Shown here piece by piece: positions 13,672 to 63,673 of a stretch of 64,000 nt of DNA (within the stretch, counting starts at the first letter, position 1; each line of letters opens with the position of its first letter). Under the pieces are notes generated by a model. The model searched no databases. It saw only the letters and a list, made by a program, of their open reading frames with translations, and had not been told where the DNA came from. The stretch is from an uncultured virus (IMG/VR IMGVR_UViG_2823577039_000003) (taxonomy: Duplodnaviria > Heunggongvirae > Uroviricota > Caudoviricetes). The position numbers and the translations under genes are program-made. The stretch lies in IMG/VR virus record IMGVR_UViG_2823577039_000003, one strand, 5' to 3'.

Positions 13672-14574
13672 TCACTGATCCCATTTGAATTGAGGGTTAA
13701 TCTTAAACTTATCCATAATCATTTCGGACGCAAGATTTCCAAAAATGGTTCCCAGTGCCCCGATTAGACATCCAATAATTATACCTTTTAACATGACGGA
13801 AGCATCATCGTCATCATAAAGATTGGCTACTTCAGGATGTTTCTGAAGATATTGGGTAACCGAAGAAGGAGGATTATCATTTTTCAAACGAGGGTCTCGG
13901 GCAGCCGCAGGGTCGTGAAACACTTTCCCCACAGGTGCGGTAAATCTCTCTGCCAAGAATTGGTCGTCCCATGATGATAATAAGTTGTCCATAATGTCAT
14001 CAATAGCATTATTTAACCGAGAATTATCTGTATCTGATAAAATATTTTCTCTTTCTTCTTCCGTCAAACTGTCATACCATTGGTCTGCGTCTTGTTGGGT
14101 GGAATCTTCGTCGCCAGTGAGGGCAATATATATATTTAACACATCATCGGAAAAACCACTTACCCAATCCTCAGACCAGCCTTCGTAAGCCTGCTCAGTA
14201 GCCATTTGTGGATCATAATAAGAATCGTCATACCAGTCATCTTCATCTTCGCTTTGATACATTAAAGGTTTAGTATAATGACCTCCACAGGAAGTGCCGG
14301 GGCCTTGAAAACGTCCTCCAAGGACTCTGCAATCGCCCATAGTGGTTTCCATACACCTGCCATCAGGTAGCAAACAAGCACCAAACCAATTAGAATAAGG
14401 TGTAGCCTTGAAATCTTTTTCTAAAAGTATGTCTACCTGACTATTGTTTAAAATATCCATAAGATAGGCAATAGACTCTTCTTCGTTGGAATCAGGGTGG
14501 GCTTCTAACCAAGCCACATACTCTTGAAGTTGACGGTCAGAAATTAAATCTAACAAGGTGGAAAGTTCAATCAT
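13672..14574 (-). CDS. Acidic protein with Cys module and near-C-terminal membrane anchor
   Basis: Has the module GACLLPDGRCMETTMGDCRVLGGRFQGPGTSC and a TM segment GIIIGCLIGALGTIFG. ATGA overlap. Confidence 0.6.
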   Translation of the reverse strand: MIELSTLLDLISDRQLQEYVAWLEAHPDSNEEESIAYLMDILNNSQVDILLEKDFKATPYSNWFGACLLPDGRCMETTMGDCRVLGGRFQGPGTSCGGHYTKPLMYQSEDEDDWYDDSYYDPQMATEQAYEGWSEDWVSGFSDDVLNIYIALTGDEDSTQQDADQWYDSLTEEERENILSDTDNSRLNNAIDDIMDNLLSSWDDQFLAERFTAPVGKVFHDPAAARDPRLKNDNPPSSVTQYLQKHPEVANLYDDDDASVMLKGIIIGCLIGALGTIFGNLASEMIMDKFKINPQFKWDQ

Positions 14575-14846
14575 CCTTGTGCCTCCTTGATCTCTTCTGT
14601 TAGACCGAGAGCAAGGATTACAAAGGGGATGCTCATTAAAGCATAATCAGTCCAACCGAAAGCATCAGATGGCCAACCATACTGACGATAGGTGCGAGCG
14701 ACACCCAAAAGGGTAGAAGTAAAGAAAGCAGCAGAACCGACGGCAGGAATTAAAAGACCACGCCATGCTTTACGTCGTTGCTCGGCTCGGGCATCAACTT
14801 CAGCCTCTACTTGGGTTTCAATATGTTTTTGCTCTTGGCCCACCAT
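14571..14846 (-). CDS. Small 2-TM membrane protein
   Basis: Two hydrophobic segments; SD GAGGTGA. Confidence 0.55.
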   Translation of the reverse strand: MVGQEQKHIETQVEAEVDARAEQRRKAWRGLLIPAVGSAAFFTSTLLGVARTYRQYGWPSDAFGWTDYALMSIPFVILALGLTEEIKEAQG

Positions 14847-14853
14847 AGGAAAC

Positions 14854-15408
14854 TCACCTCATAAGTAATGCGAGTCCTGCACCGAGAGCACCGGCTACAG
14901 CCAATGAACCCCATGCAACAGAGGTTTCAGGTTCTATTTGCATACCATCAATTTCTTGAGTTTCGTCAGCAGAATAACTTTCTGCTTCTCCGGCTACTAC
15001 GGAAGGGTCATCCGAAGTTCGGCATCCGAAAACATTAGACCACAAAGGATTACACAAACGGTTTTCAGTCATCCAGCGTGAAAAAGCACCGGGCATGGAT
15101 TCATCAAGATATTTATAATCTTGCATATCTGCACCGCTGGAAGGCATCCACTTCATAGTGGAACCAGTTTGGGTGTAGGGAATACCGGCTTGACCATAGG
15201 GTTGATAAGCATTACCAGATTGGTCTAAAGTAGTTACTGTAGGTGTCCATGCCATCCATGGAACTGTAGAAGGTGCTTTAGAGATAGGATCTCCACCAGC
15301 AGTNTATCCAATAATTTCTTGTTTCTTAGAAGGGTCTGAAGGATCTTGAACATAACACTTTCGGTTATATAAGTCTCCACGGTCACAGGTAATTCCATAG
15401 CCAGCCAT
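14854..15408 (-). CDS. Tail-anchored protein
   Basis: Ends WGSLAVAGALGAGLALLMR-stop. TATA motif at 15428-15438. Confidence 0.6.
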   Translation of the reverse strand: MAGYGITCDRGDLYNRKCYVQDPSDPSKKQEIIGXTAGGDPISKAPSTVPWMAWTPTVTTLDQSGNAYQPYGQAGIPYTQTGSTMKWMPSSGADMQDYKYLDESMPGAFSRWMTENRLCNPLWSNVFGCRTSDDPSVVAGEAESYSADETQEIDGMQIEPETSVAWGSLAVAGALGAGLALLMR

Positions 15409-15427
15409 AAATATAATAGTGTCAGCC

Positions 15428-15438
15428 GACTATTTATA
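15428..15438 (-). promoter_or_regulatory. TATA promoter TATAAATAGTC
   Basis: 19 nt spacer to ATG 15408; lies 1 nt after the upstream stop codon. Confidence 0.8.
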
Positions 15439-15439
15439 C

Positions 15440-16645
15440 TTAATCTTCGGACGGTTCTTCGTCCTGACCCTTAGCAAACTTATTTAAAAGCATAACGGCG
15501 GCTACTAAGCCCAAGGCACCAATACCTGTAGCAACTATAGCATTACGTTTAAGACGGGTATTTTCACTTTGGAAATCTTGCATAAATCTATCATCTAAGT
15601 AAGTATCTTCGCCCATACTGGGGAACTCTTGAGACTCAATAATCATATCTAATAAATCGTCGGCAAAAGGTCCACCGGCACTAACATGAATACCATCATC
15701 TTCACGATAAATCTTGACTTGACCTTCTGTTACCATGTCCTTCCAATCACTGTGAGCCGTGAGACGGCGATACAAATCTTTGGAAAGGGTGAAAGTTTCA
15801 AAATTATCAGGAATATCTTCCTTGATATCCATTTCGGTTTCGGCGGCTTTGCCCTTAAATCTACTATCAATAATGGCNGGGAAACGGCCTCCTTCTTGGG
15901 AATTAACTTGAATGGTGTCAATTTCATCAATTTTCATACCTGAGTTTTCCAAGTCCTTCTTATGTAGTAGAACTGGAGAAGGCAAACCTACGTCCAGAAC
16001 ATAACTTCGGGGGTATTTGTTGTCTTCCTCATAGCCTTTAACCTTGAGGTAAGGAGCCGTCTTTTGAATCTCTTGTCGCTTCTTCTTTTGGCGTTCCTTT
16101 CGGGCAGCCTTATACTCGGGAGTGTCACGACGCTTCTTCATTTCTTCCCTGCTTTCGCCGGGTAAGAGATCGGGACTGGTATCAACTTCAGAAGCCATAC
16201 TCATCGGTCCAATACCATCGTCATCATCTTCACCATTGAAAGGTGTAGCATTTATATTTACTACGGCATCAGTGCCCGGGGTGGCGGTTGTCATGGATGC
16301 AGAATTACTGCCGATAACACGACCGTTGCCATCAGGTTGGAAAGTATCGTCACCCAGCATAGCCACTTCTTCTACACCATCGGCTTGTTCTTCAGCCACA
16401 GGTGCGTCAACAACTTCAGCCACGTTTTCAGAAGCCTTGGCTTCCATTCCCGGATAGGTAATATCTATACCTGATTCTTTAGAAACACGCTCTGCTTCGG
16501 CTTTAGAACAAACTTTGTGACAATTATAGGTTTTGCCTTTGTGTTTATATTCGCCTTTGATACCGAAAGACTTTTTCTTAACAATGGCCGTAACTTTGGC
16601 TTTAACATTTTGTTTAAGAGGTAAACAGTAAAAACTATACTTCAT
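15440..16645 (-). CDS. Modular tail-anchored protein (basic Cys-containing N-domain, xAE/xSE linkers)
   Basis: C-terminal TM AIVATGIGALGLVAAVMLL; SD GGTGA. KASE, MASE, KAAE and FQSE motifs separate its segments. Confidence 0.6.
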   Translation of the reverse strand: MKYSFYCLPLKQNVKAKVTAIVKKKSFGIKGEYKHKGKTYNCHKVCSKAEAERVSKESGIDITYPGMEAKASENVAEVVDAPVAEEQADGVEEVAMLGDDTFQPDGNGRVIGSNSASMTTATPGTDAVVNINATPFNGEDDDDGIGPMSMASEVDTSPDLLPGESREEMKKRRDTPEYKAARKERQKKKRQEIQKTAPYLKVKGYEEDNKYPRSYVLDVGLPSPVLLHKKDLENSGMKIDEIDTIQVNSQEGGRFXAIIDSRFKGKAAETEMDIKEDIPDNFETFTLSKDLYRRLTAHSDWKDMVTEGQVKIYREDDGIHVSAGGPFADDLLDMIIESQEFPSMGEDTYLDDRFMQDFQSENTRLKRNAIVATGIGALGLVAAVMLLNKFAKGQDEEPSED

Positions 16646-16649
16646 TTAA

Positions 16650-17207
16650 TCACCAACCGAATGTTTTTTGCTCAAAAGATGCTCGTGGTGCAAATAAATC
16701 AGCAGAGGGTCCAAATCCAAAGGATTCTTGTCCCACGGCAGCACCGTAAACACCATGTCCACCAAAGTCTACATGATCTGCAGTAGCGATTGGCTCAAAG
16801 AGATAGTGTGCATCATCGGCTAAGTAAGCCTGTTGTTCTACTTGCTCNGCATTGTTTTCTTGCTCATCTTCTTTTTCCATCTCATTTTCGTAAGCATTTT
16901 GAGTGGCTTCTAACAACGATTCGTATCGCTTNATTTCAGTTTGAGCCTGATTTCCACGAGTCAAACGACCCAGACCGTAAGCGAGAGGTGCAACACCTAA
17001 AGCAATAGCCACAATGGTGCGATGAGCACCAAGAACATCAAACTTAGCCTTGTCTAATCCACAGAAGGCTAAAGTGCCTGCACCAAGAAATAAAGGAATA
17101 CCTGTGCTCGGTTCAAGGGCTTCTTTTTCCAGAGTAGAGGGTTCACGAGGGGTTTCATCTCCCTCACCAAATAGAATCTGGTTTCGTAATGATGCGAAGT
17201 CTACCAT
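16650..17207 (-). CDS. Membrane protein (hairpin TM)
   Basis: Two hydrophobic segments followed by an acidic coiled stretch. TATA motif at 17227-17237. Confidence 0.55.
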   Translation of the reverse strand: MVDFASLRNQILFGEGDETPREPSTLEKEALEPSTGIPLFLGAGTLAFCGLDKAKFDVLGAHRTIVAIALGVAPLAYGLGRLTRGNQAQTEXKRYESLLEATQNAYENEMEKEDEQENNXEQVEQQAYLADDAHYLFEPIATADHVDFGGHGVYGAAVGQESFGFGPSADLFAPRASFEQKTFGW

Positions 17208-17226
17208 AGTAATACCTTCGGTCTAC

Positions 17227-17237
17227 AACTATTTATA
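17227..17237 (-). promoter_or_regulatory. TATA promoter TATAAATAGTT
   Basis: 19 nt spacer to ATG 17207. Confidence 0.8.
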
Positions 17238-17240
17238 CTT

Positions 17241-17615
17241 TCAGTTGGCACCAACGGCACGACCGAAGTAATTTGCTCCGAAAATAGGCTCAGTAGTCAT
17301 AAGAGTGTAAGAATAAGCAGTCCAATCAGAACGCACGGTGTCTTCACCGTTGTTAGGAGTTTGTCCTACTGGATAAGTATAGTTAATGTTTTGTCCTACG
17401 GCTTGTCCGCCCATGATTCCACGGTCGGTGCCAATGACAGGGATAGTTCCCCAGTTATTGACTAAATGATCCTTACCAGTTTCGGTGTGGGCTTCTTTAG
17501 TTTCTTCAGTAGCCTCGCTACTGTCGTTCATTTTGCCCTTAATATAACTACCTACAACGAAAGTTACCAGAGCGATTGGAATACCAATCATTAAACCTTC
17601 AGTGACTGCTGACAT
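17241..17615 (-). CDS. N-terminally anchored small membrane protein
   Basis: TM segment GLMIGIPIALVTFVVGSYI. Start MSAVTE follows the promoter at 17635-17645. Confidence 0.55.
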   Translation of the reverse strand: MSAVTEGLMIGIPIALVTFVVGSYIKGKMNDSSEATEETKEAHTETGKDHLVNNWGTIPVIGTDRGIMGGQAVGQNINYTYPVGQTPNNGEDTVRSDWTAYSYTLMTTEPIFGANYFGRAVGAN

Positions 17616-17652
17616 ATTATTCACTTCTCCTTACGACTATTTATATTTACTC

Positions 17653-19116
17653 TTATTCTTGGTTGTAGAAGGCACCTAAACCTACAAGGGCCAATGGAAT
17701 GGTAAGTGCAGCAGCAACCCAACCCAAACCTAATTTATATCCGGTGCGAAGTGGTTGTTGTAGTTGAATGGGAACAGTAGGGTCTGCAAGAACCCGACGG
17801 TTTTCAGCATCCATTTCAATAGTATCTTGAATGGCGATTTCATCTTGGAGTTCATCTAAACGAGTGGCAATCTGATTACGATAACGTATCATTTCTTCTA
17901 ACAAGGGGTGTTTAGGATTGTCCATAGTTTGATACATAGTAGCGATATCAGTTTCTAAAGACATATAGATAGATAATAGACGATCGAAATCTTGTTCATC
18001 ATCAATAATTATATCTTCTCGGATTTCTAAGAGAGTATTGAAGGGTGAATCTGCAGCAAAATGTTCGGCTTGCTTAAAGATTTTCTTAAAAGTGGTAATT
18101 TCTTTGTCACTGGCAGAGGGTTGATAAGTAATTTTACTTGACATATCACGACCGTCTCGGTGTCCATCGTTGTAAGCATAAATATAAGCATCAGATTCAG
18201 AGGCATAAGTGCCAGTTTCAGCGGTGTTAAAATCACTGTATTCGTGATGCCATGAGACATCTCCAGTAACCTCAAACTCTTNATCTTGGGCATCAACAAA
18301 TTGAATATCAAAACTTAGGCTTCCTTCGCCATCACCTGTGCTACGGATTTCTCGCTCTACTCGGTCTTCTATTTCTGCTATCTGGTCACCATCTAATGAT
18401 TTAGGTGATTCATACTGGCCTTCGTAAACAATAGTTCCAAAAGTCATACGCTCTCCGGAAATCTCACCAGATTCGGCTCGCTTACGCTTGAGACCTTCGC
18501 TTCCATCAAGAGGTGTCCAATTTGCCATCTCTCCAAACTCCATAGGATCTTGAATAGGGGCACTTCCTTCCTCAGAATAATGCTCACGCATGTAATCTAC
18601 ATCAGTAGAAGCCTCGTCCATAGCGGCCTCTTCTTTTTCTCTTTTCATTCGTTGGCGTTTAGTTTCCGCCTTCATAGCAGAAACACGATAATAACCTTCG
18701 CCTTCTGGCCCTCCTTCATCGTAAATCCATTTAGCAGCACAAGGTTCACAAATGTTGTCATGACCTTCTATATCTCCACCGGGATTAGGTAATCCAGTAA
18801 TATAACAGTTAGGACCTTCGGCATATTCAGTCCATTCTAAGAAATCAATGCCATCCAAATGGCTGTCTTGACAAGTTTCTTCTGCACCCATCTTGACTTC
18901 ATCAACTAAGTAATCGTCTTCAAAGGCTCCAATCTCACGCAGTTCAGCGATTTTGTCATCACGATCTAATTCAGAAAACTCTTCTTCAATAGTAATCATA
19001 AAATCTTCTAATTCATCGGGAGTATAAATATCCATTTTGTATCCCAGTTGTTCTAACTGATCGAAATCTAAAAGACGAAACATATCGTCTAATTGTTCAT
19101 CGCTGAAGTATTGCAT
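17653..19116 (-). CDS. Acidic modular tail-anchored protein with multiple xAE motifs
   Basis: Motifs MGAE, MKAE, KRAE, NTAE, YASE, KQAE and MDAE. C-terminal TM LGLGWVAAALTIPLALVGLGAFY. Confidence 0.6.
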   Translation of the reverse strand: MQYFSDEQLDDMFRLLDFDQLEQLGYKMDIYTPDELEDFMITIEEEFSELDRDDKIAELREIGAFEDDYLVDEVKMGAEETCQDSHLDGIDFLEWTEYAEGPNCYITGLPNPGGDIEGHDNICEPCAAKWIYDEGGPEGEGYYRVSAMKAETKRQRMKREKEEAAMDEASTDVDYMREHYSEEGSAPIQDPMEFGEMANWTPLDGSEGLKRKRAESGEISGERMTFGTIVYEGQYESPKSLDGDQIAEIEDRVEREIRSTGDGEGSLSFDIQFVDAQDXEFEVTGDVSWHHEYSDFNTAETGTYASESDAYIYAYNDGHRDGRDMSSKITYQPSASDKEITTFKKIFKQAEHFAADSPFNTLLEIREDIIIDDEQDFDRLLSIYMSLETDIATMYQTMDNPKHPLLEEMIRYRNQIATRLDELQDEIAIQDTIEMDAENRRVLADPTVPIQLQQPLRTGYKLGLGWVAAALTIPLALVGLGAFYNQE

Positions 19117-31547: not shown

Positions 31548-31558
31548 AGTGGACCGCC

Positions 31559-40279: not shown

Positions 40280-40582
40280 TCAAAGGTGACCGTGGGCTTT
40301 TGCGCCTTCAATCATCTCAGCAGACATATCTACGAATTGAGTAGGGTTTAGAACGATACTCTTACCGAAGAGCATAACCAATCCGCTACCAACTGCGATA
40401 GTTCCGAGAACCTTAAGTGGAGTTACTCCACCAAAGAGGGGAAGTTCACCAAAGGACATGCTACCAAAAGCATCTTTGTTAAAGAAAGGTAGTGGACCAG
40501 AGAACTGGTGTAGACCGATCAAAGTTAGTGTTGTTCCAATTACGAGTTTGTTGCTTAAGAAATCTGTGACTGCATTCATCAT
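40280..40582 (-). CDS. Membrane protein family C
   Basis: FLSNKLVIGTTLTLIG..LPLFGGVTPLKVLG..GLVML resembles 26561 and 27138. Has an MSAE motif. Confidence 0.55.
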   Translation of the reverse strand: MMNAVTDFLSNKLVIGTTLTLIGLHQFSGPLPFFNKDAFGSMSFGELPLFGGVTPLKVLGTIAVGSGLVMLFGKSIVLNPTQFVDMSAEMIEGAKAHGHL

Positions 40583-40623
40583 ATTATCATATCCTATGTT
40601 TTACTATTTATATTTTTGTTTTA

Positions 40624-41518: not shown

Positions 41519-41932
41519 TTACTTGTTCATGAGAGAGGAAACAGCCAAGAATGCGCCAGTTCCAACTAATGCAAATCCTAAGAGATTCATGAGGGAATTG
41601 CCAGAGGATTCACCTTCAGCACTGTAGTGTTCAGCAACCATGCGGTCTTGTTCGCCTTGGTCTTGTCCAAAGTTTTGGCCGTCAGCATCTCCGCCTTGGT
41701 CTCCAGTTTGACCTTCATCGGCACCTTCTGGAGTATCAGTTTCAGGTTTCAAATCTACTACTTCTGATTCTTGAGTAGCGTCTTGAGGAGATACCATTTG
41801 AGTCATGGGGTCAGTCATAACATCACGGTTAGTGTTCATGAAAGCACGAATAGCATCAGAGTTACGTTCCCAAGAGTAGTGATTTACTACGGTATTAGGA
41901 TCTACAATCATCGGTTCGTTGAAAGGGTGCAT
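41519..41932 (-). CDS. Tail-anchored protein
   Basis: MVAEHYSAE is followed by TM LMNLLGFALVGTGAFLAVSSLM-NK. Confidence 0.6.
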   Translation of the reverse strand: MHPFNEPMIVDPNTVVNHYSWERNSDAIRAFMNTNRDVMTDPMTQMVSPQDATQESEVVDLKPETDTPEGADEGQTGDQGGDADGQNFGQDQGEQDRMVAEHYSAEGESSGNSLMNLLGFALVGTGAFLAVSSLMNK

Positions 41933-43165: not shown

Positions 43166-44359
43166 TTAGTTGGAGGCTAAACCACGATAAACGACATAAC
43201 TAAGAGTTCCAGCCACTACTAAACCACCTACTACGATGCCGGTGACCATCATACTACCATCTTTTTCGGGTTCTGGTGGTTCTACCTCAACATCATATTC
43301 TACTTCAGGTTCGGCTTTCGCCTCAGCATCCCAACTCATATTATTTACTAATCGTGCCGGTGGCAGATTACCTACTGGGGAGGGGGTTGCAGGGGGAGGG
43401 GTTCTCCAAGAGGCTTCTGCAGCCATCGGTTGCTTGTGGTTGGGATTGACATCTACTTCTACATCTAAGGCTGCCAAGTCTTGAGGCGAGGCTACAGGAT
43501 TTTCATCATGGAACTTCAACCGTGAATCTTGAATGTTAACGTTGTGTCCTTTGTGTTCGGTCTTACGGTCTCCACGGATTTTACCGATGACTACATATCC
43601 TCGGTCACGATAGAACTCGGGTGCATAAGCGATAACTTCTCCTTTACGGGCTTTAGCGATACCGTCCAGCATACGCTTAATAGTTTTCTTATCAGTTCCA
43701 AAGGATAACTGATCGTCCAGAGCCTTGAGGTCACGAGCGTTGATAACGTTGTGAACGAGATAGATAGAGGCTTGAGATAGGGCTTCCTTGCCTACGCCCG
43801 CAGGACGCTGGGAGATAAGTGTAACTCCATAACCGAGAGCACGGCCTAATTTACAAAGACGAATAATGGGGTCGGCTGAACTTGGTCTTCCCATCTGTGG
43901 AATAAAGTCTTGACATTCTTCCACGATTGTTTGAATACCTTTACCAAGTGCGGCTTCTAAAAGGGCTTCACAATATTCAGCAATCAATTCTTGTTGCTTC
44001 TTGAGTGGCAGTCCCGCCAACTTAATAATAACTGAGTTAGAAGTAGTCTTGAGAGTATCCACTAATTCTTTCATGTTGATAGTCTGTCCCAGAGTAGGTT
44101 TGAGTGGCACGACACCGGGCATCTGTTCTGCTAAATGACCGTGAGCATCCAGAGCGTCAAAACAAACGAATTGTAATCCCAAGCGAGCAAACTCTTCCAT
44201 CAGAACCGCAGCGGTCCATGACTTTCCGCTACCACGCTTACCAGTAATAAACAGAACCTGTGAGATAAGTGAATCATCTCCATAGGCAGAGAAATGAATA
44301 TCTTTGCCTAACAGGACACGATCCTTGGGGTCCTGTAATTTCTCTTGAGGTTTACCCAT
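43166..44359 (-). CDS. HerA/FtsK-superfamily P-loop ATPase with C-terminal membrane anchor (candidate genome-packaging ATPase)
   Basis: Walker A GKRGSGKS, Walker B TIVEECQ, and LGRALGYGVTLISQRP (Arg and SQRP motifs). C-terminal TM GIVVGGLVVAGTLSYVVY. Start MGKPQE. Confidence 0.85.
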   Translation of the reverse strand: MGKPQEKLQDPKDRVLLGKDIHFSAYGDDSLISQVLFITGKRGSGKSWTAAVLMEEFARLGLQFVCFDALDAHGHLAEQMPGVVPLKPTLGQTINMKELVDTLKTTSNSVIIKLAGLPLKKQQELIAEYCEALLEAALGKGIQTIVEECQDFIPQMGRPSSADPIIRLCKLGRALGYGVTLISQRPAGVGKEALSQASIYLVHNVINARDLKALDDQLSFGTDKKTIKRMLDGIAKARKGEVIAYAPEFYRDRGYVVIGKIRGDRKTEHKGHNVNIQDSRLKFHDENPVASPQDLAALDVEVDVNPNHKQPMAAEASWRTPPPATPSPVGNLPPARLVNNMSWDAEAKAEPEVEYDVEVEPPEPEKDGSMMVTGIVVGGLVVAGTLSYVVYRGLASN

Positions 44360-44378
44360 AGATATAACTTCCCTGCAC

Positions 44379-44389
44379 AACTATATGTA
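44379..44389 (-). promoter_or_regulatory. Variant promoter TACATATAGTT
   Basis: 19 nt spacer to ATG 44359 (HerA ATPase). Confidence 0.65.
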
Positions 44390-48172: not shown

Positions 48173-48177
48173 ATTTA

Positions 48178-49404: not shown

Positions 49405-49439
49405 GATTATAATACTACGGAGAGACTATATAAAGTTTA

Positions 49440-52400
49440 TCATTGTAGACAATCTTTGAACCGAGCGTTGAAGAAGTTACGGTCTTGCAGCGACATATTT
49501 CCAGTATCAACTAAACAAGCCTTAGCCTTAATTCGTTGCTTGGTCGGCAAACTCTTAGTTAATTCCTTCATGTAATCATTGAAAGCACCAGCCCATGCGT
49601 TGTTATCAACGAAACATTGGGTGTGATATTGTGAACTTACATCAGCAGGAACAATGTAAACTTGTGTGCCTTGTAACAATTGACCTTTTTCATCACTTTG
49701 AGTGGTTCCGATAGCGGAAGAAATACCGGCTGTAAACAACATGGTTACATATTCAGCATCAGTTTCAGAAGGTTGTGCTTCGGCTTGGTCACCGGCTCGT
49801 TGAAGTCTAACCCAAAGACGGAGTGTGTCTTCACCGTGCATACCACGGTTAGCAGCCTGTGGGGTGGTAGTTGGAGCGTGTTTAAGAACGAAACAACCAA
49901 TAACATCATCTTCAGGGGCATTGGTGGGGTCACGAATGTTTTGTTGAAGTGCACGAGAGGCTTGTTTAATCCAATCTTCTAAAGAAGTTTTACGCATAGT
50001 CATGTTGGCTGCATCACCGAAGTTCTGGAAAACATGACCATCAGTTACATACTGATCGAAAGTCTTTTGGAAGTTAGTGAGAACAGTTCCAATTTCTACT
50101 CGGCTACCACTGCGAGTGCTACCGACCTGATAGCGACCTATCACTCGCAATCCTTGGTCGGCGTTGTTTACTGCTGTAGCCAAATCAGCACCTAATGGTG
50201 AAGCGATGCTACCCGAGTTACCAAGAATCATGCCATTCAGTCCTCGGGTTTGTCCACGGTTAATCAAGATACCATATGGACCCATGCTGTCAAAGTAAGT
50301 TCTCCATCCCAAACGATTCGGTCGTGGGTTGGGGGCGTTGTTAGCATCTCCGAAGAAATCGTTTTGGCGAGGTGCTTGACGAGTTCCTGCAGGTGGTGGT
50401 GTAACTGCTTGAGGCATAGGTATAATAGAACCAGACACACAACCAGACACTTCGTTAATGTCGGAGTCAAGAATTGAATCACCAGAGATAGAACGCATCT
50501 CGGAATCCAACATCATCAACANTCTATGACGGTCATTAGTAAATAAGTTTACATCACGAGCAATAATACCACGAACTGCGTAGTAATCAAAGAGAATTGG
50601 CTCTTTGTCACTGCCTGTTGGATCNAAAATTAGATTCTGGAAGTAAGAATACATAGAGTTGTAATCACCTAATTGACTATAACTACCATCTACGCCTGCA
50701 TTTTCTACAGTATAACTTCGCTGTGGTTTGTTGGTAGAGCCAGAAGCGTTAGTAGCCATTCTTTCTTCTTCTACAACCATAGTTGCGATATGCCAGTGAA
50801 CTGGAGTAATTTCACTCAGGGAAGATTCGCTGGAATCTTTAATTTCTTGGTGAAGTGGAAGCAAGACATCTCGCTCGTATTGCCAAACTGATGGCACAGA
50901 GGCGAGAACATCACGGCAACGTTGGTAAAACANGTCAAAGTTATCCAAAAGATTTTGTCCTTCTTGGCCAACACCAGTCGTAACACCTTTGTTTTGAATG
51001 TATCCACGAACCAATACTTCTCGTAGGAACTCTTGTTCGTTAACATATTTAATAGTGCTTCCGTCCAGACCCTTGTTGTTTCCTTGTAGGTCAAGAGCAC
51101 CGGCTTTAGCACGACCCAAACGGTGTGCCAGACAGTATGGAACTGCGTCCAGAATATCTTGTCGGCCTACATATTCCTTGCCACGCAAGAAAGAGAAGGC
51201 TTGTGCCAATTTAACAATAGAGTTAGTGAAACGGAAACCGAGAACACGAGTAAAGGCTGAAGGAACGTGAGACAAGTCATCAGAAGTTCCGAAATCACCG
51301 AAAGATAGAATTGAGTCGGCATCTTCGGCTCCAATCAGGGGTGTTGTGGTAGATTCTCCAGAAGTTTCGGTGTTAGTGGTAATAGAATAATCCAAAAGTG
51401 GAGATTCGTGAACGTTACCAATACCAGTAGCGAAACTGTATTCCAATTCATCGCTTCCAGCAGCGATAGATGTAGGTCGCTTAGCGAAACGCTGAGAGAA
51501 CAGCATAGAAATCATACCGATATCACGGAGACCGTTGTAAGAAGATCCCGGGGGTGTGAATCCAAGGCTGCCGACAGTTGTCCACACCTTCATTAAGTCA
51601 TCAATACGCATAGGTATGAGAGTTTTACGGTTGTTTTGAGTTAATTCTTTAACAATACGAAGTTGTGGTTCACCACTGCCTCCGCCACCGTATTTACCCA
51701 TTAGTTGGTCATAACGACCACCGAGTCCAACGGAACGGAATAGTAATTCCATGTCAATACGATCGGTAAATGCCAAATCGTTTCCTTTTTGGTGAGGGTT
51801 AGTATCCATCCAAGCAACGAATGGTGGTGAGTTAAACACTTTACCACGATATTCTACTTTTCGCTCGGCAATAAGACCCAGAATTGCGTCTTCTACACCA
51901 GATTGAGAACGGTTGGCTTCGTTAAAGAACTTAATAGGTTGGGTAACAATTGGTTTTGGCTCAGGTTCAAACACGAAAGTGTTGGTAGTAGCACCAGTGA
52001 TAGCAGAGGTTTCTTCAACACTCTGGATTTCCAGACCGTAAAGAACTTCATCAGGTCGCTTATCATAATCTAATTTAGCCACACCGATTTCACCGAGCAT
52101 TTCCATACCGATAGCATCAATACCACCACGAGAAGTAGCACGAATATCACGCAAGAAGTGGCACATCATTTCACGAAGCCAATATCCTTCGTTACGACCA
52201 GCATCAGTGTAGATACCATCAAGTTCGGCAGCAAATATAAGTTGCTTACGAGCCGGTTCGGGAATACTACCCATGATTTGACCATAGAAAGAAGAGTTTA
52301 CTTTAGCGTTGCGAAGAGACATTTCAAACGGTCCATAACTGGGTTTGGAACCTTGCTCAAAGGCAATAAATTGACCTTGGTCATCTAAAATCTTGATAGG

Positions 52401-53969
52401 TTTAACATAGATTTCTTTTTCGGTTTCTGCATAGGCTTCTGAAGTAGGATCCCAGTTAGGGTGGTCAGCATAGGAGTTAGTTCCCATATCATTCCAGAGT
52501 CCAATGTCAAAATCTTTTGGAACACGAACTTCCCAACAGTTTTGTAGTAGATTACGATAAGTTTCAATAGTAACTTCACGCTTAGAGTCTACAGGTGGGA
52601 ACAACATATCTCCACGATGATTGGTAGTTTCTTCTTCTTGGTTGCGAAGGAACTTAAAGTTATAAAGATAAGAACCACTGCGTTGTGGGGAAGAATAATT
52701 ATAATTATTTGAGGCATCTACTGGAGGGTGTGACCAAGAAGTAAATCTCCAACTTTCCCAAACACCAGCAGTATCAGCGTAGGACTTTTGGTTGTAGTTA
52801 ATATCATAATACATACCTTTCTCAAAAATGAGTGGCTGGTAAATGTTATCACTACTGGAGTTATCGCCAAAGAAATTACGGGGGTCAGCAGAACTACCCA
52901 AGTTGGTTAAATATTGTTCACCGGCAGAATAGGTCTTGGAAGTATGGTAACCATAAGAGTTAGCCAAAAGGGTAGAAGCACATTCAATAACTGTGGTTTT
53001 TCCAGTTCCGGGGATACCAGACAACCGACAGGTAGAGTTCTTCATCAACCATGCTGCAATCAAGGCTTCTAATTGTTTGTAATCGTCAAAACCGAAAACA
53101 TCATTGAGTTTGAAAATAAGAGTTCGCATCCACTTCAACAAGTCAACACGTTGTTGTCGGCGTTCTTTTTCACCAATCAATTCTTTAAACTCTTCAAGGG
53201 CATTCATAATAGAACCGCCCATGCCATCCGCCTTGTAACGGTTAATAGAATCGTTTTCTAAATTGGTAAACACAGAGTTATCTATAACTTGTTGAACCTC
53301 TACTTCACCGTCAGAGTTAACTGGTAGGTTGAGAATAGAAGTAACATCGGCACCATTTATATCTACTAACTGAATAAATCGGGGTCGTCCATCACGATCG
53401 TCTAAAATATCTATACGAGCAATATCGCTAAGCGGAGTCATAGAGACGACATCACTAAGTCCACCATCATTCATAGAAGCAATTTTAGCAATTAAGTTAG
53501 TGGCTCGGTCACCAATAACGCTTTCCAGATTTTGGAGTAGTAATTGTTTGCCGTCTAATTTAGCCTCACCTTCGGGAACAAAAATAGGTGTAACTACTTC
53601 ATTAGGGAGCAATCCCATAAGTTCGTCATCATCTAAAACTTCGGAAAGATAATTGGCTTCCATAGCCTGCTTGATAGCATCTACTTCTACTTCATCAACA
53701 CCTAAGTTATTCATAGGTTGTGGGCTGTCAGGGATTTCAGGAATTACTTCTTCATTATCATCTAAATCTTCAAAGAAAGATTCATCTTGAGACAAGTCTT
53801 GGATTTCTTCAATCTCTTCCATAAGTTCTTCAACCTCGGGTTCAGAAGGAACATCAGTGGAATCTATTTCCATTTCTTCCATGAGGTCATCCATGTCATC
53901 CATGTCTAAAGGTTGAAGTTCTTCAACTTGTTCTTCATCTTCGTCAGCATTAAAGTGTTCTTCGGTCAT
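49440..53969 (-). CDS. Giant MoxR-family AAA+ ATPase with large insertions
   Basis: Walker A GIPGTGKT, Walker B-like FFNEANR, MDTNP, AFTDRI, and lid AQAFSFLRGKEYVGRQDILDAVPYCLAHRL. Acidic N-terminus. Confidence 0.8.
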   Translation of the reverse strand: MTEEHFNADEDEEQVEELQPLDMDDMDDLMEEMEIDSTDVPSEPEVEELMEEIEEIQDLSQDESFFEDLDDNEEVIPEIPDSPQPMNNLGVDEVEVDAIKQAMEANYLSEVLDDDELMGLLPNEVVTPIFVPEGEAKLDGKQLLLQNLESVIGDRATNLIAKIASMNDGGLSDVVSMTPLSDIARIDILDDRDGRPRFIQLVDINGADVTSILNLPVNSDGEVEVQQVIDNSVFTNLENDSINRYKADGMGGSIMNALEEFKELIGEKERRQQRVDLLKWMRTLIFKLNDVFGFDDYKQLEALIAAWLMKNSTCRLSGIPGTGKTTVIECASTLLANSYGYHTSKTYSAGEQYLTNLGSSADPRNFFGDNSSSDNIYQPLIFEKGMYYDINYNQKSYADTAGVWESWRFTSWSHPPVDASNNYNYSSPQRSGSYLYNFKFLRNQEEETTNHRGDMLFPPVDSKREVTIETYRNLLQNCWEVRVPKDFDIGLWNDMGTNSYADHPNWDPTSEAYAETEKEIYVKPIKILDDQGQFIAFEQGSKPSYGPFEMSLRNAKVNSSFYGQIMGSIPEPARKQLIFAAELDGIYTDAGRNEGYWLREMMCHFLRDIRATSRGGIDAIGMEMLGEIGVAKLDYDKRPDEVLYGLEIQSVEETSAITGATTNTFVFEPEPKPIVTQPIKFFNEANRSQSGVEDAILGLIAERKVEYRGKVFNSPPFVAWMDTNPHQKGNDLAFTDRIDMELLFRSVGLGGRYDQLMGKYGGGGSGEPQLRIVKELTQNNRKTLIPMRIDDLMKVWTTVGSLGFTPPGSSYNGLRDIGMISMLFSQRFAKRPTSIAAGSDELEYSFATGIGNVHESPLLDYSITTNTETSGESTTTPLIGAEDADSILSFGDFGTSDDLSHVPSAFTRVLGFRFTNSIVKLAQAFSFLRGKEYVGRQDILDAVPYCLAHRLGRAKAGALDLQGNNKGLDGSTIKYVNEQEFLREVLVRGYIQNKGVTTGVGQEGQNLLDNFDXFYQRCRDVLASVPSVWQYERDVLLPLHQEIKDSSESSLSEITPVHWHIATMVVEEERMATNASGSTNKPQRSYTVENAGVDGSYSQLGDYNSMYSYFQNLIXDPTGSDKEPILFDYYAVRGIIARDVNLFTNDRHRXLMMLDSEMRSISGDSILDSDINEVSGCVSGSIIPMPQAVTPPPAGTRQAPRQNDFFGDANNAPNPRPNRLGWRTYFDSMGPYGILINRGQTRGLNGMILGNSGSIASPLGADLATAVNNADQGLRVIGRYQVGSTRSGSRVEIGTVLTNFQKTFDQYVTDGHVFQNFGDAANMTMRKTSLEDWIKQASRALQQNIRDPTNAPEDDVIGCFVLKHAPTTTPQAANRGMHGEDTLRLWVRLQRAGDQAEAQPSETDAEYVTMLFTAGISSAIGTTQSDEKGQLLQGTQVYIVPADVSSQYHTQCFVDNNAWAGAFNDYMKELTKSLPTKQRIKAKACLVDTGNMSLQDRNFFNARFKDCLQ

Positions 53970-59228: not shown

Positions 59229-59738
59229 TTAAGACCAGACAGTAGCCAAGGCTTCATAGGCTTTATCTAAGGTATCATTATCAGGTTCTTCGCCATCTTC
59301 CATTTTACCTATAAGTTCTTGGAGGGCAGTAATAGTCATAACAATTTGTCGCCATTTGAGTTCCCTCAATCTTTCGTAAACTCCTCGTTCTTCAGCACGG
59401 TTGACAAAGTTTTTACTTTCTAAATACTTTACCAGTGCTAAGAGGTCTAAACGCCATCTAATTCCGCCTCTGCGATCTTTAGATTGAGCGTGTTTGAACA
59501 TAGGTCGGTTGCGAAGCACACCGATAACTTCACGAGAGGTATATCTTCGTGGTTTGAGTTGCACCATTTTTTCAGAGATTTCTGTAGAGTAGCCGTAGCC
59601 TTCGTGTGCCAAGAGATAATCCACAATATCAAAAACTAACGATTCCGTCAAGGGTAATGGACGGGTGTCTCGCTTTCGCTTTGCGGGTTTTTCTTCAGGG
59701 TCTTTTGAAAAATCATAACCCTTTTCATCCTTGGCCAT
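59229..59738 (-). CDS. Putative winged helix-turn-helix DNA-binding protein
   Basis: IVDYL..YSTEISEKM..TSREVIGVLR..F....GGIRWRL fits a wHTH layout. SD GGAGTGA. Confidence 0.5.
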   Translation of the reverse strand: MAKDEKGYDFSKDPEEKPAKRKRDTRPLPLTESLVFDIVDYLLAHEGYGYSTEISEKMVQLKPRRYTSREVIGVLRNRPMFKHAQSKDRRGGIRWRLDLLALVKYLESKNFVNRAEERGVYERLRELKWRQIVMTITALQELIGKMEDGEEPDNDTLDKAYEALATVWS

Positions 59739-60757: not shown

Positions 60758-60876
60758 TCTACCAACTCCTTAAGTTCTTGTTTCATGCCACTAATAATAA
60801 ACGGAAAGTGGTAATCGTTGAGAATCTTTTTAATACCTTCACGCATTCGCTGGACTTCATCACATTCGCAACTCAT
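60754..60876 (-). CDS. 40 aa small protein missing from the ORF track
   Basis: Translates as MSCECDEVQRMREGIKKILNDYHFPFIISGMKQELKELVE*. SD GAGGTGAT, with ATGA overlaps at both ends. Confidence 0.6.
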   Translation of the reverse strand: MSCECDEVQRMREGIKKILNDYHFPFIISGMKQELKELVE

Positions 60877-61244
60877 TCAATCACCTCGTATAACTGCCAT
60901 TCTCCAGAAGCGAGACCATCTTTATGAGAGAATAATCTACCGACTGGAAATCCATGGGCTTGACGCTCGTTATCGGCTCTCAATCTGCCTCCACATTCTA
61001 ATTCAAAAGGTGGGTCGTGAAAACGAGATCGCCATGCAAAAGAATCAACGGAATCAACGGCTATGGGACGAAGATGATAGGAATCATCTAATTCGCCCAC
61101 AAGGACGTGAAGCCCTTGGCCGCTGGATGATACCCGATACCAGACCCTTTCGGGTCCAAAAGACTCGGCCAACTGGCTCAAAGCCTGCTGGACGATATCA
61201 TTATCTATGGCGACATCATCCCAATCAAAAGTTAACACTCCCAT
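60873..61244 (-). CDS. Minimal archaeo-eukaryotic primase (AEP)-like protein
   Basis: hhhDWD (motif I) and RVSSSGQGLHV (motif II) occur in only about 123 aa. Confidence 0.55.
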   Translation of the reverse strand: MGVLTFDWDDVAIDNDIVQQALSQLAESFGPERVWYRVSSSGQGLHVLVGELDDSYHLRPIAVDSVDSFAWRSRFHDPPFELECGGRLRADNERQAHGFPVGRLFSHKDGLASGEWQLYEVIE

Positions 61245-61283
61245 AGGAGTAATTAGTAACAACCTCTGTTATATAGTTTGAGA

Positions 61284-61973
61284 TTACTTCTTAAGCATCT
61301 TGGAAGCAAAAATACCGCCAACAACTACGAGAGCAGCAATACCACCGTAAAGTAGGTAATTGGTTTCGTCTTCTTCAGTGTCATCGCCGTTTCCGCCATT
61401 ATCAGAACCACCGTTGCCACCATTAGAACCGCCGTTGTCGCCGTTTGTGCCGTTATCACCAGTTCCGTTGTCGCCACCCGCAGGTGTGATAGGAACTACT
61501 TCATCAAGAGTGATATTGTAGGAGTCTCCACGAATCCATGGAACTTCAGTAGTTACGTTTGCAGAACCATCTGCAGGGACATAAACTACGTTTTTTCCAC
61601 GGCCATCACGGTAGAGTGAGTCGCCGGGCTTAAGGTCAAAGGAAAAGGTTTGTTTGCCGGGGCGTGATAGGTTAACAGTTTGACTAACTATATCAGCAGC
61701 ACTGTCAAGTGTAAAGTGGAATCCTTTATCGTATCCTGTTTTAACTCCACCACTTACGTTAGTAGTGTGAGAGCCAGCACCAGTGCCACCATCACCGATA
61801 CTAAAACGACTAAAGTTGGCACCGTCATAGTTAGTAATGTTAGCACTATCAATGGTTGCTGCACCGAATTGTTTTGATGGTAGCGACATCAAACTTTCTG
61901 CGCTGAATGTTGGTAGTGGGAGATTAGTCTCGGATTGAAACTTTCCAAATGAGTTATAGTCTACAAAGCCCAT
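61284..61973 (-). CDS. Tail-anchored surface protein with Gly/Asn/Asp linker
   Basis: FSAE near the N-terminus, a beta-rich domain, a GDNGTG/GGNGG linker, and TM YLLYGGIAALVVVGGIFA-SKMLKK. Confidence 0.65.
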   Translation of the reverse strand: MGFVDYNSFGKFQSETNLPLPTFSAESLMSLPSKQFGAATIDSANITNYDGANFSRFSIGDGGTGAGSHTTNVSGGVKTGYDKGFHFTLDSAADIVSQTVNLSRPGKQTFSFDLKPGDSLYRDGRGKNVVYVPADGSANVTTEVPWIRGDSYNITLDEVVPITPAGGDNGTGDNGTNGDNGGSNGGNGGSDNGGNGDDTEEDETNYLLYGGIAALVVVGGIFASKMLKK

Positions 61974-62011
61974 GTAAAGAATAATACTCCACTACTATTT
62001 ATATTTAACGA

Positions 62012-62170
62012 CTATTCTTCTTCGTCATCATTAGTATTTTTATGATACCAGACCAGAAGTTTACTTAACTGTTCATTTCGCCAGAGAACCCAGCGCACAA
62101 AATAAATATTCGCAAAGCCATGCAAGATCACAGCCATCATAATTAGCCATACAATTGTTAAGTCATCCAT
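62012..62170 (-). CDS. 52 aa membrane protein missing from the ORF track
   Basis: Translates as MDDLTIVWLIMMAVILHGFANIYFVRWVLWRNEQLSKLLVWYHKNTNDDEEE*. SD GGTGAG, directly downstream of the ArsA/Get3 gene. Confidence 0.6.
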   Translation of the reverse strand: MDDLTIVWLIMMAVILHGFANIYFVRWVLWRNEQLSKLLVWYHKNTNDDEEE

Positions 62171-62171
62171 T

Positions 62172-63152
62172 TTACTCACCCGGTAATGTCATTTTATCAG
62201 TTCCCATAATCAAATCAGCGAAATCTTTTAAGTGTCCTGAATCGCCTAAACCTTTGGGTTCATAGGGTAAACGAGTTACTCCAATAGCCGAGACATCATG
62301 TTCTTTGCAGACTTTTTGATAATTGTTAATCCATGGTTGCTGGTTCTGGTGTTCTGACCAGACCATAGCCACGGCAGGATTTTCTCCTCGGATATCAAAG
62401 TGTTGTTTGAGATCGGGAACGATGTGATTAATAATAAGTGTATTAGCAGGAAGCCCAATAGATTTCAAGAAATTGATAGTGCGATAAAACTCCATGAATC
62501 CTGCTTCAGTCGGAATGGAAACTAACATAATTTTAGTTCTCTCGGTGTCTTCTAAAAATGATTTTAATAAATCTATTTCGTCACAGAAACTGGCCAGTAA
62601 TTCTTCTAACTCATCAGTATCACTGCCTTTGAACACAATACCTTTCAGTAATTTGCCAGAAATCTTTTTCTTCATACGGCGAATCTTAAGCAACATTTCT
62701 TTAATGGTATCTGGTGCAGTCAAGGCTTTGAGGGTGTGTCCCGTAGGTGCAGTATCAAATACAATTAAATCATATTCTTCATCACGCATAAGTTCTCCGA
62801 GAATCTCACAAGCACCCCATTCGTCTAAACCGGGGAGTGCTGACATAGAGACTACATCAGTATCCATATTAGGAAAAAGATTACTAAACATAGAAGCGAA
62901 AGCCTCTTTAACTCGGGTTACTCGGCCTGAAATGGCTTTGGCAGCATCAATATTCATCGCCCAAAGATTAGTGGCAATTTCTTGAGGTGTAGAACTGATT
63001 TTAACTCCTACAGTATCGTCAGTGCTGTGAGCCGGATCGGAAGAGATAAGAATAGTTTTCAACCCTTGCTCAGCATAATAATGTGCTAAAGAAGCAGAAG
63101 TTGTGGATTTTCCCACTCCGCCTTTGCCAGTTACTAACAGTAACTTCGTCAT
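62172..63152 (-). CDS. arsA: ArsA/Get3(TRC40)-family SIMIBI ATPase, single domain
   Basis: Motifs GKGGVGKST, SDPAHS, LPGLDE, FDTAPTGHTL, a helical insert after switch II, and LPYEPKG. Start MTKLLL follows the promoter at 63172-63182. Confidence 0.9.
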   Translation of the reverse strand: MTKLLLVTGKGGVGKSTTSASLAHYYAEQGLKTILISSDPAHSTDDTVGVKISSTPQEIATNLWAMNIDAAKAISGRVTRVKEAFASMFSNLFPNMDTDVVSMSALPGLDEWGACEILGELMRDEEYDLIVFDTAPTGHTLKALTAPDTIKEMLLKIRRMKKKISGKLLKGIVFKGSDTDELEELLASFCDEIDLLKSFLEDTERTKIMLVSIPTEAGFMEFYRTINFLKSIGLPANTLIINHIVPDLKQHFDIRGENPAVAMVWSEHQNQQPWINNYQKVCKEHDVSAIGVTRLPYEPKGLGDSGHLKDFADLIMGTDKMTLPGE

Positions 63153-63171: not shown

Positions 63172-63182
63172 TGGTATTTATA
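63172..63182 (-). promoter_or_regulatory. TATA promoter TATAAATACCA of the ArsA/Get3 gene
   Basis: 19 nt spacer to ATG 63152. Confidence 0.7.
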
Positions 63183-63187
63183 TCTTC

Positions 63188-63613
63188 TTAAGCCCACTCT
63201 TCTAAGAAATCACTGGAAAACTCTTCAGATAAGTCATCTAAATCAATTTTTATAACTTCTTGCTTTTCGGTAACAATACTAAATTGACAATACAACAACT
63301 CGGTTTCATTTGCGGAAGTAATACCACTCATAATTGATTCCCAGAGCGATAAGCACTCTAACGAGATAGTGAGGTCTTCTTTAGGAAAGAATGGGGCTTC
63401 TGGGGTGATAACCATACCTGATGACACCAGTTCTCCAGAATAAACGGTAACTTTGCCACAAGTAATCTTGAGCATAACATAATCTGCACTATTAAAATTA
63501 TCTAATGGGTGTATAATTATTTTTTCTACTCTGGTTCCGGGATCCATCTCTACAGTAGCGATGACGGAACTTGTGCGGCTTATCGGGATTTTAAAGTCTT
63601 TGCTTTTATCCAT
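63188..63613 (-). CDS. Small beta-rich hypothetical protein
   Basis: SD GGAGGG precedes ATG 63613. Alternating hydrophobic strands. Confidence 0.5.
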   Translation of the reverse strand: MDKSKDFKIPISRTSSVIATVEMDPGTRVEKIIIHPLDNFNSADYVMLKITCGKVTVYSGELVSSGMVITPEAPFFPKEDLTISLECLSLWESIMSGITSANETELLYCQFSIVTEKQEVIKIDLDDLSEEFSSDFLEEWA

Positions 63614-63673
63614 TTTACCCTCCACTTTAGTATTGTGTTTTCCGCTATTTATGCTTTAGCCCTTCGTGCATCA

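Follow-up and report, generated by a model that had tools for sequence, protein, structure and literature searches.

The 64,000-nucleotide (nt) stretch of an uncultured virus analysed here (IMG/VR record IMGVR_UViG_2823577039_000003; hereafter the window) carries, at positions 62172 to 63152 on the minus strand, a gene for an intact member of the Get3/TRC40/ArsA ATPase family with a Get3-type helical subdomain. This virus-borne Get3-type ATPase, named Get3v, was found to be a vertically inherited, conserved gene of a marine viral lineage, located directly upstream of a small membrane protein gene and encoded among many tail-anchor-like proteins. Get3v may well be a chaperone that delivers viral tail-anchored proteins to the assembly membrane and docks there on the small membrane protein, a reading to which we assign a roughly balanced probability. 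The window represents bases 62001-126000 of a contig of 136,324 bp, designated C16, which belongs to a bin of 1.63 Mb in 61 contigs. A related IMG/VR genome, G003, served for comparison. The central features are:

62172..63152, minus strand: Get3/TRC40/ArsA-family ATPase (Get3v), 326 amino acids (aa), single domain, based on Pfam, NCBIfam, PDB alignments, AlphaFold2 (AF2) and Foldseek
62012..62170, minus strand: 52-aa membrane protein with an N-terminal transmembrane (TM) helix, the segment YFVRWVLWR-N and an acidic tail, DDEEE
63174-63182, minus strand: TATA-box-like motif of Get3, TATAAATAC, ending 21 nt upstream of the ATG

Family membership and sequence motifs of Get3v

The start codon of Get3v was placed at the ATG at 63152 and not at the GTG at 63197 further upstream, since the ATG is the one in register with the start MTKLLL.TGKGG common to all close homologues. 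The protein matched the Pfam model ArsA_ATPase (PF02374) over residues 2-251 with an E-value of 3.4e-56 and 191.2 bits (cut-off 24.3), compared with at most 44 bits for any other family. It passed the model TIGR00345, GET3_arsA_TRC40, with 189.2 bits (cut-off 135); for the ArsA equivalog TIGR04291, its 106.9 bits fell short of the required 650. The single-domain ArsA/Get3 ATPase reported in the initial annotation was recovered by both PF02374 and TIGR00345, as one domain in 326 aa.

Get3v contains a P-loop (GKGGVGKS), a switch I (DPAHS) and a switch II (DTAPTGH). The deviant Walker A, the DPAH of switch I and the DTAPTGH of switch II showed no variation across an alignment of 46 sequences, with G9, K10, G11, G12, G14 and K15, D39, P40, A41 and H42, and D133, T134, P136 and G138 invariant. 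Taken as a whole, Get3v branches deeply within a known family, of which it is a new member, and the evidence supports assignment of the gene to the Get3 type and not to the ArsA type.

Fold and helical insert

An AF2 model built on 46 homologues had a mean predicted local distance difference test score (pLDDT) of 84.6 and a predicted TM-score of 0.83, with predicted helices at residues 70-90, 98-102, 109-124, 136-168 and 177-201. In a Foldseek search against the PDB, the top match was TRC40 of M. thermautotrophicus (3zq6; E-value 6.7e-24, TM-score 0.68-0.77), followed by Get3 of M. jannaschii and then by diatom, fungal, Giardia and human Get3. The 28 matches listed, down to rank 49, were all Get3/TRC40 entries and include Get3 structures solved with bound TM domains (4XVU, 4XTR and 7SQ0); identity in the alignments to archaeal Get3 was only about 30-32%. 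At the sequence level, the following PDB entries were matched:

5zme, Chlamydomonas ArsA1, a tandem protein, E-value 3.1e-58 (as the protein is tandem, this score sums two domains)
3ug6, M. jannaschii Get3, E-value 1.8e-40
3zq6, M. thermautotrophicus Get3, E-value 3.4e-39
1f48, E. coli ArsA, E-value 4.5e-28
several yeast Get3 entries, E-value about 1e-21

A helical insert follows DTAPTGH at approximately residues 140-201, with a predicted helix (136-168), loop (169-176) and second helix (177-201). The alignments of Get3v with the archaeal Get3 proteins 3ug6 and 3zq6 run unbroken across this insert, whereas the alignment with E. coli ArsA (1f48) stops at query residue 148 and restarts at 199. 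Get3v thus has the helical segment that distinguishes Get3-type proteins from ArsA. The insert had first been described as helical and rich in Met and Leu. Its helical nature was confirmed, as was its richness in Leu (19.4% for residues 140-201 versus 10.7% for the whole protein), but its Met content (3.2% versus 4.0%) is not elevated. Helices 70-90, 136-168 and 177-201 are amphipathic, with hydrophobic positions kept at i/i+3/i+4 spacing in the 46 sequences and a hydrophobic moment of 0.58 for helix 136-168. The lid (residues 150-176) is strongly basic, and the close clade shows no variation at R158, R159, K161, K163 and K167.

Conservation and phylogeny of the viral Get3 proteins

Close homologues of Get3v, 52-93% identical, come from metagenomes, as do a '316-aa' and a '384-396-aa ArsA family' group of homologues at 43-49% identity. 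Some homologues are labelled Marinimicrobia, Bacteroidetes, Maribacter or Crocinitomicaceae; the gene content of their loci is not bacterial. When the ORFs of 12 loci retrieved with Get3 (L009-L020) were compared with C16 by BLASTP, nine showed the gene order of the window: Get3, the small membrane protein, homologues of the genes at 59746, 59229, 58349, 57819, 56630 and 56218, a 1509-aa protein and a packaging-type ATPase. The other three (L016, L018 and L019) are too short or share only one or two genes.

A second set of loci was fetched from IMG/VR independently of the ATPase, with a conserved 169-aa protein (59229-59738) as marker. Relatives without the ATPase, which the initial annotation had regarded as a point against its proposal, were not among them: all five loci, two of which (L094 and L095) are near-identical, have Get3 inside the 10-kb flank, in one copy per record.

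In a maximum-likelihood tree of 97 rows, all 32 viral forms fell on one side of a branch with a Shimodaira-Hasegawa-like approximate likelihood ratio test (SH-aLRT) support of 97. Their sister group (support 99) comprises 58 cellular proteins with lengths of about 390 aa. A branch 1.65 long, with support 100, lies between these two groups and the ArsA halves. In the phylogeny against ArsA that the initial annotation called for, the viral forms make up a clade of their own. The tree was made in the 'quick' mode of IQ-TREE with SH-aLRT support only, and the program warns of long branches meeting. It contains no labelled archaeal Get3, and its cellular rows are all of the HSP20-bearing type, a one-sided sample caused by the search patterns used. 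Five short or truncated rows (L034, L049, L053, L080 and L088) were excluded, and two tandem forms (L064 and L083) were entered as split halves.

An exhaustive HMMER search of representatives found nothing above 39% identity outside the viral clade. Matches beyond the clade were mostly tandem forms of 600-800 aa at 29-38% identity; no donor of the viral Get3 can be named, because the scores of these tandem forms are inflated by their two domains. A tblastn search of INPHARED with Get3 gave only five weak arsA-like matches (25-31%), and scans of IMG/VR with Get3 alone or with an alignment of the close clade gave no match, the back-translated patterns being too clade-specific.

Some viral forms are longer (381-416 aa) and have an additional C-terminal region of about 70 aa, which the window protein of 326 aa lacks. 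In the model of the G003 Get3 (L106:12473-13618; pLDDT 85.9), this extension is predicted as six beta strands (block pLDDT 81-90); in the long forms it ends in a basic stretch and (V/A)T(L/Y)T(F/W). The HSP20-like domain PF17886 was present in all five cellular sisters tested, and none of five long viral forms matched it at an E-value of 0.01 or lower. The profile match between the beta domain of the long forms and HSP20 is weak (hhalign probability 17%, P 0.0014), and NosGet3d (8egk) came only 24th for the long-form model, with a root-mean-square deviation of 14.

A small membrane protein downstream of Get3

The 52-aa membrane ORF at 62012..62170 had been noted before and proved real, its ATG lying 1 nt past the Get3 stop codon. 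The first promoter-like motif downstream of Get3 is situated beyond this ORF, at 61995-62003. Given this spacing and the position of the next motif, Get3 and the 52-aa gene look like one unit. The small protein starts with a hydrophobic N-terminal helix, continues in a juxtamembrane segment rich in Trp and Arg and ends in an acidic tail. Residues Y23, F24, V25, W27, L29, W30, R31 and N32 are invariant across six aligned homologues.

When the window and 17 related loci were scanned for the motif, a membrane protein of 52-64 aa was seen directly downstream of Get3 in 10 of these 18 loci, with Get3 identity down to about 42%, as follows:

Directly downstream (10): window, L009-L013, L015, L017, L096, L097
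Displaced, with a BLAST match about 2.4 kb downstream (2): L094, L095
Not found (6): L014, L016, L018, L019, L020, L098

Three of the last group (L016, L018 and L019) are short or break off shortly past Get3. The small protein is paired with Get3 forms of 316, 326 and 381-389 aa. Fused, longer proteins containing it were not found, which is weak evidence. From its sequence and position, the 52-aa protein is a candidate membrane partner of Get3, and its conserved place next to the ATPase gene lends indirect support to the receptor role on which the initial annotation speculated.

Tail-anchor-like proteins in the window

Open reading frames (ORFs) were scanned for TM segments by Kyte-Doolittle hydropathy over 19 residues, at a threshold of 1.6. 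To count as tail-anchor-like, an ORF needed a single hydrophobic segment no longer than 35 residues, beginning after residue 40 and ending at most 30 residues from the C-terminus. The scan is crude: it uses simple hydropathy without a signal-peptide model and takes the longest ORF as start. The numbers of tail-anchor-like ORFs were:

Window: 13/68
Whole contig C16: 18/167
Bin contigs below 32% G+C: 12/1263
The bin's other contigs: 12/362
G003: 15/213
Flanks of L009-L020: 8/203

Compared with the low-G+C bin contigs, a bacterial background and not the virus's host, the window is enriched with a Fisher p of 1.6e-11. The window also has seven ORFs with an N-terminal TM segment, four with multiple and three with internal TM segments, and the tail-anchor class is the TM class most enriched. 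Eleven tail-anchored ORFs had been proposed initially. Ten of them have a single C-terminal TM segment at the threshold of 1.6; the eleventh, at 31559, fails there and passes a lower threshold only. Three further ORFs were flagged (23804, 26037 and 40280). The C-termini resemble classical tail anchors with short basic tails (...LITLKK, ...LLVRRSMQ, ...FASKMLKK). Called by the Kyte-Doolittle scan unless stated otherwise, the candidates are:

13672..19116, minus strand: cluster of tail-anchor-like ORFs 13672-14574, 14854-15408, 15440-16645 and 17653-19116 (scan and C-termini)
23804-24031 (75 aa) and 26037-26279 (80 aa), minus strand: small tail-anchor-like ORFs, weaker calls
29478-30371 and 30984-31562, minus strand: tail-anchor-like ORFs
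31559-33547, minus strand: borderline tail-anchor-like ORF with a hydropathy peak of 1.47 and a Gly-rich C-terminal segment
36951-37367 and 41519-41932, minus strand: tail-anchor-like ORFs; 40280-40582, minus strand: borderline
43166..44380, minus strand: HerA/FtsK-type (DUF87) packaging-like ATPase with a C-terminal TM anchor (PF01935, 2.3e-6)
61284..61973, minus strand: tail-anchor-like protein of 229 aa with TM segment 204-227 and the tail KMLKK, with its own TATAAATAG at 61995-62003

Among PHROGs, the ATPase at 43166 matched phrog_2666, 'terminase large subunit' (3.6e-17). Its C-terminal hydrophobic helix is kept in the homologues of L014, L015 and G003; the preceding linker is not conserved. 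The G003 homologue of 41519 is likewise tail-anchor-like, and that of 23804 scans as N-terminal or multi-TM.

Proposed function and alternatives

In the proposed mechanism, an ATP-bound Get3v dimer would shield the C-terminal TM helices of viral tail-anchored proteins after translation. These clients, which would include the membrane-anchored packaging-type ATPase, would be carried to the membrane where the virion or envelope is built. There, Get3v would dock on the small membrane protein by way of its Trp/Arg-rich juxtamembrane helix and acidic tail, and the latter may touch the basic lid of Get3v (150-176). ATP hydrolysis would then release the helix. Insertases of the Oxa1/YidC/Get1 type were not detected by Pfam scans in C16 or G003, so that insertion would be either spontaneous or mediated by a YidC/Oxa1-type insertase of the host. 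A more far-reaching version is put forward tentatively and is, in our opinion, rather doubtful: a self-contained viral tail-anchor insertion pathway, in which the Get3-type ATPase and one minimal receptor of 52-64 aa, similar in function to Get1/Get2 and unrelated to them, load at least a dozen tail-anchored proteins including the packaging ATPase into the virion membrane.

Several results weigh against a tail-anchor chaperone. The CxxC zinc motif was found in none of the 46 aligned sequences and the insert is not Met-rich. Get3 of M. jannaschii is likewise not known to have a CxxC. Farkas et al. (2019, PMC6593721) list insert-bearing groups without CxxC (Table 1) and find that Met content varies widely among homologues; according to the same authors, the TRC40-type insert alone does not predict tail-anchor targeting, and bacteria use other chaperones. 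The small protein was not found in 6/18 loci and is displaced in two. The enrichment of tail-anchor-like ORFs rests on a simple hydropathy scan and on a low-G+C bacterial background rather than that of the host, and it is less pronounced in the relatives, both in the flanks of L009-L020 (8/203) and in G003 (15/213). Finally, nine tail-anchor-like ORFs of C16 have a G003 match (E-value at most 1e-4), some of these being short local matches to unrelated large proteins, and only three of the partners are tail-anchor-like at a threshold of 1.6, or four when it is lowered to 1.4.

Get3v could instead be a general holdase for hydrophobic or aggregation-prone viral proteins of any topology during a late burst of membrane proteins, with no targeting or receptor step. 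Insert-bearing prokaryotic Get3 homologues may be general chaperones according to Farkas et al. (2019, PMC6593721), who describe the functions of the insert-bearing bacterial homologues as unclear. The HSP20-like domain in the tree's sister group (5/5 tested), the predicted six-strand beta domain at the HSP20 position of the long viral forms and the 14 window ORFs with N-terminal (7), multiple (4) or internal (3) TM segments also fit such a role. However, no extra beta domain is present in Get3v of the window, enrichment is strongest for the tail-anchor class, and a conserved, tightly coupled small membrane protein suggests a step at the membrane. On balance, a holdase is considered unlikely.

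The P-loop region of Get3v is also matched by ParA/MinD-type models, and the gene lies in a morphogenesis-like block near the membrane-anchored packaging ATPase. A membrane-tethered ATPase of the SIMIBI class, MinD/ParA-like, could be anchored via the small protein and, without any clients, position sites of assembly, packaging or egress. Set against this are the full-length Pfam score of 191 bits for Get3/ArsA versus at most 44 bits for other families, and the presence and conservation of the Get3-specific helical subdomain, which make a positioning role very improbable.

It is harder still to argue for host manipulation, in which the viral Get3 would compete with or rewire the tail-anchor pathway of the host, starving or redirecting it. 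An identity of at most 39% to non-viral matches fits a long independent evolution and gives this reading no direct support, whereas a simpler set of clients is at hand in the many viral tail-anchored proteins.

An arsenite/antimonite pump ATPase serving as auxiliary resistance gene, as the automatic public names ('arsenite-transporting ATPase') would have it, can practically be dismissed: Get3v is a single domain and scores 106.9 bits versus the 650 of TIGR04291, a non-Cys residue stands opposite Cys113 of ArsA and the insert region is without ArsA counterpart, true ArsA of the arsRDAB operon lies across the branch of support 100, and no ArsB, ACR3, ArsC, ArsR or ArsD was found by Pfam among 135 C16 ORFs (6+59 of the window and 70 others), in line with the earlier remark that arsB, arsC and arsR are absent nearby, or among 147 ORFs of G003.

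Overall, the observations on which the initial annotation was based are confirmed, and its interpretation as a viral tail-anchor pathway is partly supported.

Promoter motifs, neighbouring ORFs and transcripts

The motif WATAWATAG occurs at 26 sites in the window, versus 2.8 expected, a number reached in none of 100 shuffles. The coding strand holds 24 of the 26 sites, and the motif typically ends about 21 nt before an ATG (examples are 61995-62003, 40604-40612 and 29468-29476). The viral promoter that Get3 was said to share with other genes was confirmed, as TATAAATAC stands at the same 21-nt spacing as in the other genes of the block. A TATA box placed for leaderless or near-leaderless transcripts is the usual archaeal geometry, and the spacing at Get3 appears to fit it. 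The block in which Get3 sits lies on one strand and codes mostly for unknown and membrane proteins; Get3 is placed behind the TATA-like motif of this block. WATAWATAG is not used by G003, with zero and one occurrences on its two strands.

Directly upstream of Get3, the following ORF was found:

63188..63625, minus strand: ORF of 145 aa with its own CATAAATAG at 63645-63653

It had no Pfam or PHROG match and no homologue in the related loci at an E-value of 1e-4 or 1e-5. On the other side, the 129-aa ORF at 60873-61262 (minus strand) reads like a minimal archaeo-eukaryotic primase (LTFDWD ... SSSGQGLHV), judged by reading the sequence only. It gave no Pfam match at an E-value of 0.01 or lower, and its homologues follow the small ORF in L009-L013.

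Metatranscriptome contigs from two libraries of one study cover 61430-61865, in the gene of the 229-aa tail-anchor-like protein. One of these libraries also covers 63399-63623, in the 145-aa ORF. DNA carry-over in both libraries is possible. Over Get3, a single 32-nt piece with loose ends was present, which is uninformative on Get3 transcription.

The contig and its virus lineage

Contig C16 has a G+C content of 41.6%, compared with 23-31% for most contigs of the bin. Within the bin, TFIIB repeats and the catalytic domain of PolD DP2 were found on C16 only; the bin is therefore bacterial and C16 foreign to it. Beyond the window, C16 encodes TFB, the PolD large subunit, an XPD-like helicase, Fpg, NUDIX, an ATP-dependent ligase and a dNMP kinase; it has no tRNA and no terminal repeat. 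All window genes but one lie on the minus strand. Few have Pfam matches (SAP, AAA, GT2, Cu/Zn superoxide dismutase, DUF87/HerA ATPase, VWA and a MoxR-type lid), and tail-fibre-like PHROGs matches occur on three ORFs between 33 and 6757. The evidence supports C16 as a virus-like genome and not a cellular one. Other features include:

C16 55575-59072 (contig coordinates): PolD DP2
59229-59738: conserved 169-aa protein, used as retrieval marker
39269-39883, minus strand: Cu/Zn superoxide dismutase (PF00080, 1e-40), inside a block of unknown genes
10686-10991, minus strand: SAP-domain protein (1.5e-10), inside a block of unknown genes

A run of large conserved proteins lies at 44406-53969 on the minus strand: a VWA protein (335 aa) and proteins of 923, 408 and 1509 aa. 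The last has a MoxR-type AAA lid and is 30-44% identical over most alignments in relatives.

The 169-aa marker retrieved five IMG/VR records of 84-166 kb, two of which are classed by IMG/VR as having inverted terminal repeats; the records behind L096 and L097 are G002 and G003. G003 is 160,342 bp long at 41% G+C, its inverted terminal repeat is exact over 99 nt, and 92 of its 213 ORFs have a homologue on C16. Its replication and transcription genes comprise TBP, TFB, both PolD subunits, PCNA, a class II ribonucleotide reductase (RNR), PolX and ligase. Nucleases and repair proteins are FEN-like, XPF, XPD, Hjc-like, Endo VII, UvdE and Fpg, and three C5 methyltransferases are also encoded. C16 and its relatives represent a marine lineage of linear viruses whose genomes measure about 160 kb, carry inverted terminal repeats and encode archaeal-type proteins for replication and transcription.

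Window sequence occurs in 20 sequencing runs from 12 studies, labelled as marine, seawater, aquatic or sponge metagenomes, and at least half of the window's sampled words were present in 18 runs. A PolD search gave at least 120 clusters at 48-91% identity, some with bacterial bin names. The PolD matches listed are members of the same viral group, some of them misbinned, and from the number of clusters the lineage looks large.

No capsid protein was identified in the lineage. A conserved 407-aa protein was considered as capsid candidate and rejected, since its alignment looks acidic and disordered; its best ESM Atlas score (0.82) was uninformative.

Two other contigs of the bin gave BLASTX matches to this group. 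Contig C26 (37.7 kb, 40.4% G+C) matched two ORFs at the end of C16, the ligase and a neighbour of it, and also DP1, RNR and UvdE of G003; this contig could represent a second related virus or else the end that the C16 viral genome lacks. Contig C58 (13.9 kb, 52.5% G+C) had one match, to the TBP of G003, and is possibly another foreign, archaeal-type contig.

Significance

In the literature examined, with subscription journals outside its scope, no virus-encoded Get3 was found described, in agreement with the initial annotation; 'Get3' combined with 'archaeal virus' gave no papers, and no description of PolD-encoding archaeal viruses or of this lineage was found there either. What was not found described is the combination of a virus-encoded Get3 that belongs to the core of a lineage, its coupling to a small membrane protein and its position among candidate clients. 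This lineage has retained a Get3 homologue for a long time, and the density of candidate clients around it is unusually high.

The part that Get3 plays in tail-anchor targeting has been established in detail for eukaryotes and is less settled for archaea and bacteria, and we know of no membrane receptor for a prokaryotic Get3. With one ATPase, one candidate receptor and defined candidate clients, the system is small and testable. If the self-contained insertion pathway proved true, it would be the first virus-encoded GET-like system, in virions of a previously undescribed lineage (about 160 kb; PolD, TBP, TFB), and would provide a handle on the membrane receptor of prokaryotic Get3. Get3v would also represent a new kind of viral chaperone and give a clue to membrane building in large membrane-containing archaeal viruses. 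The virus lineage itself, which looks abundant and is seemingly undescribed, merits attention.

Comparison with known systems

ArsA, exemplified by E. coli R773 (1F48) and by the arsRDAB operon of Citrobacter phage Chris1, has the superfamily, the P-loop and DTAPTGH in common with Get3v. It is a tandem double-domain protein without insert, with metalloid-binding cysteines and in an ars operon, none of which applies to Get3v. In the alignment with 1f48, the cysteine of the ArsA 'ACT' is opposite 'vsm' of Get3v and the region of the next ArsA cysteine is not alignable; the metalloid-binding cysteines concerned are presumably Cys113 and Cys172.

With the eukaryotic GET/TRC system (receptor Get1/Get2 or WRB/CAML), the proposed logic is shared, namely an ATPase dimer that shields a C-terminal TM helix and docks on a receptor, as is the fold, given the matches to 4XVU, 4XTR and 7SQ0. 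Get3v differs in the absence of CxxC, and its candidate receptor is one single-pass protein of 52-64 aa with no similarity to Get1 or Get2. Homologues of Get1, Get2, Get4 and Get5 gave no Pfam match in C16 or G003.

The Get3 proteins with a C-terminal HSP20/alpha-crystallin domain (PF17886; groups 6 and 11 of Farkas et al.; Get3d, 8EGK/8ELF) form the sister group of the viral clade. The viral forms of 381-416 aa have a predicted beta domain at the same position, whereas Get3v of the window ends after the core.

Archaeal Get3 (3UG6/3UG7 and 3ZQ6) resembles Get3v in its single domain, its length of about 320-350 aa, its motifs and an alignable insert, and it provides the best structural matches. 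In comparison with archaeal Get3, Get3v is virus-encoded, has an insert that is basic and Leu-rich rather than Met-rich, is coupled to a small membrane protein and belongs to a clade of its own.

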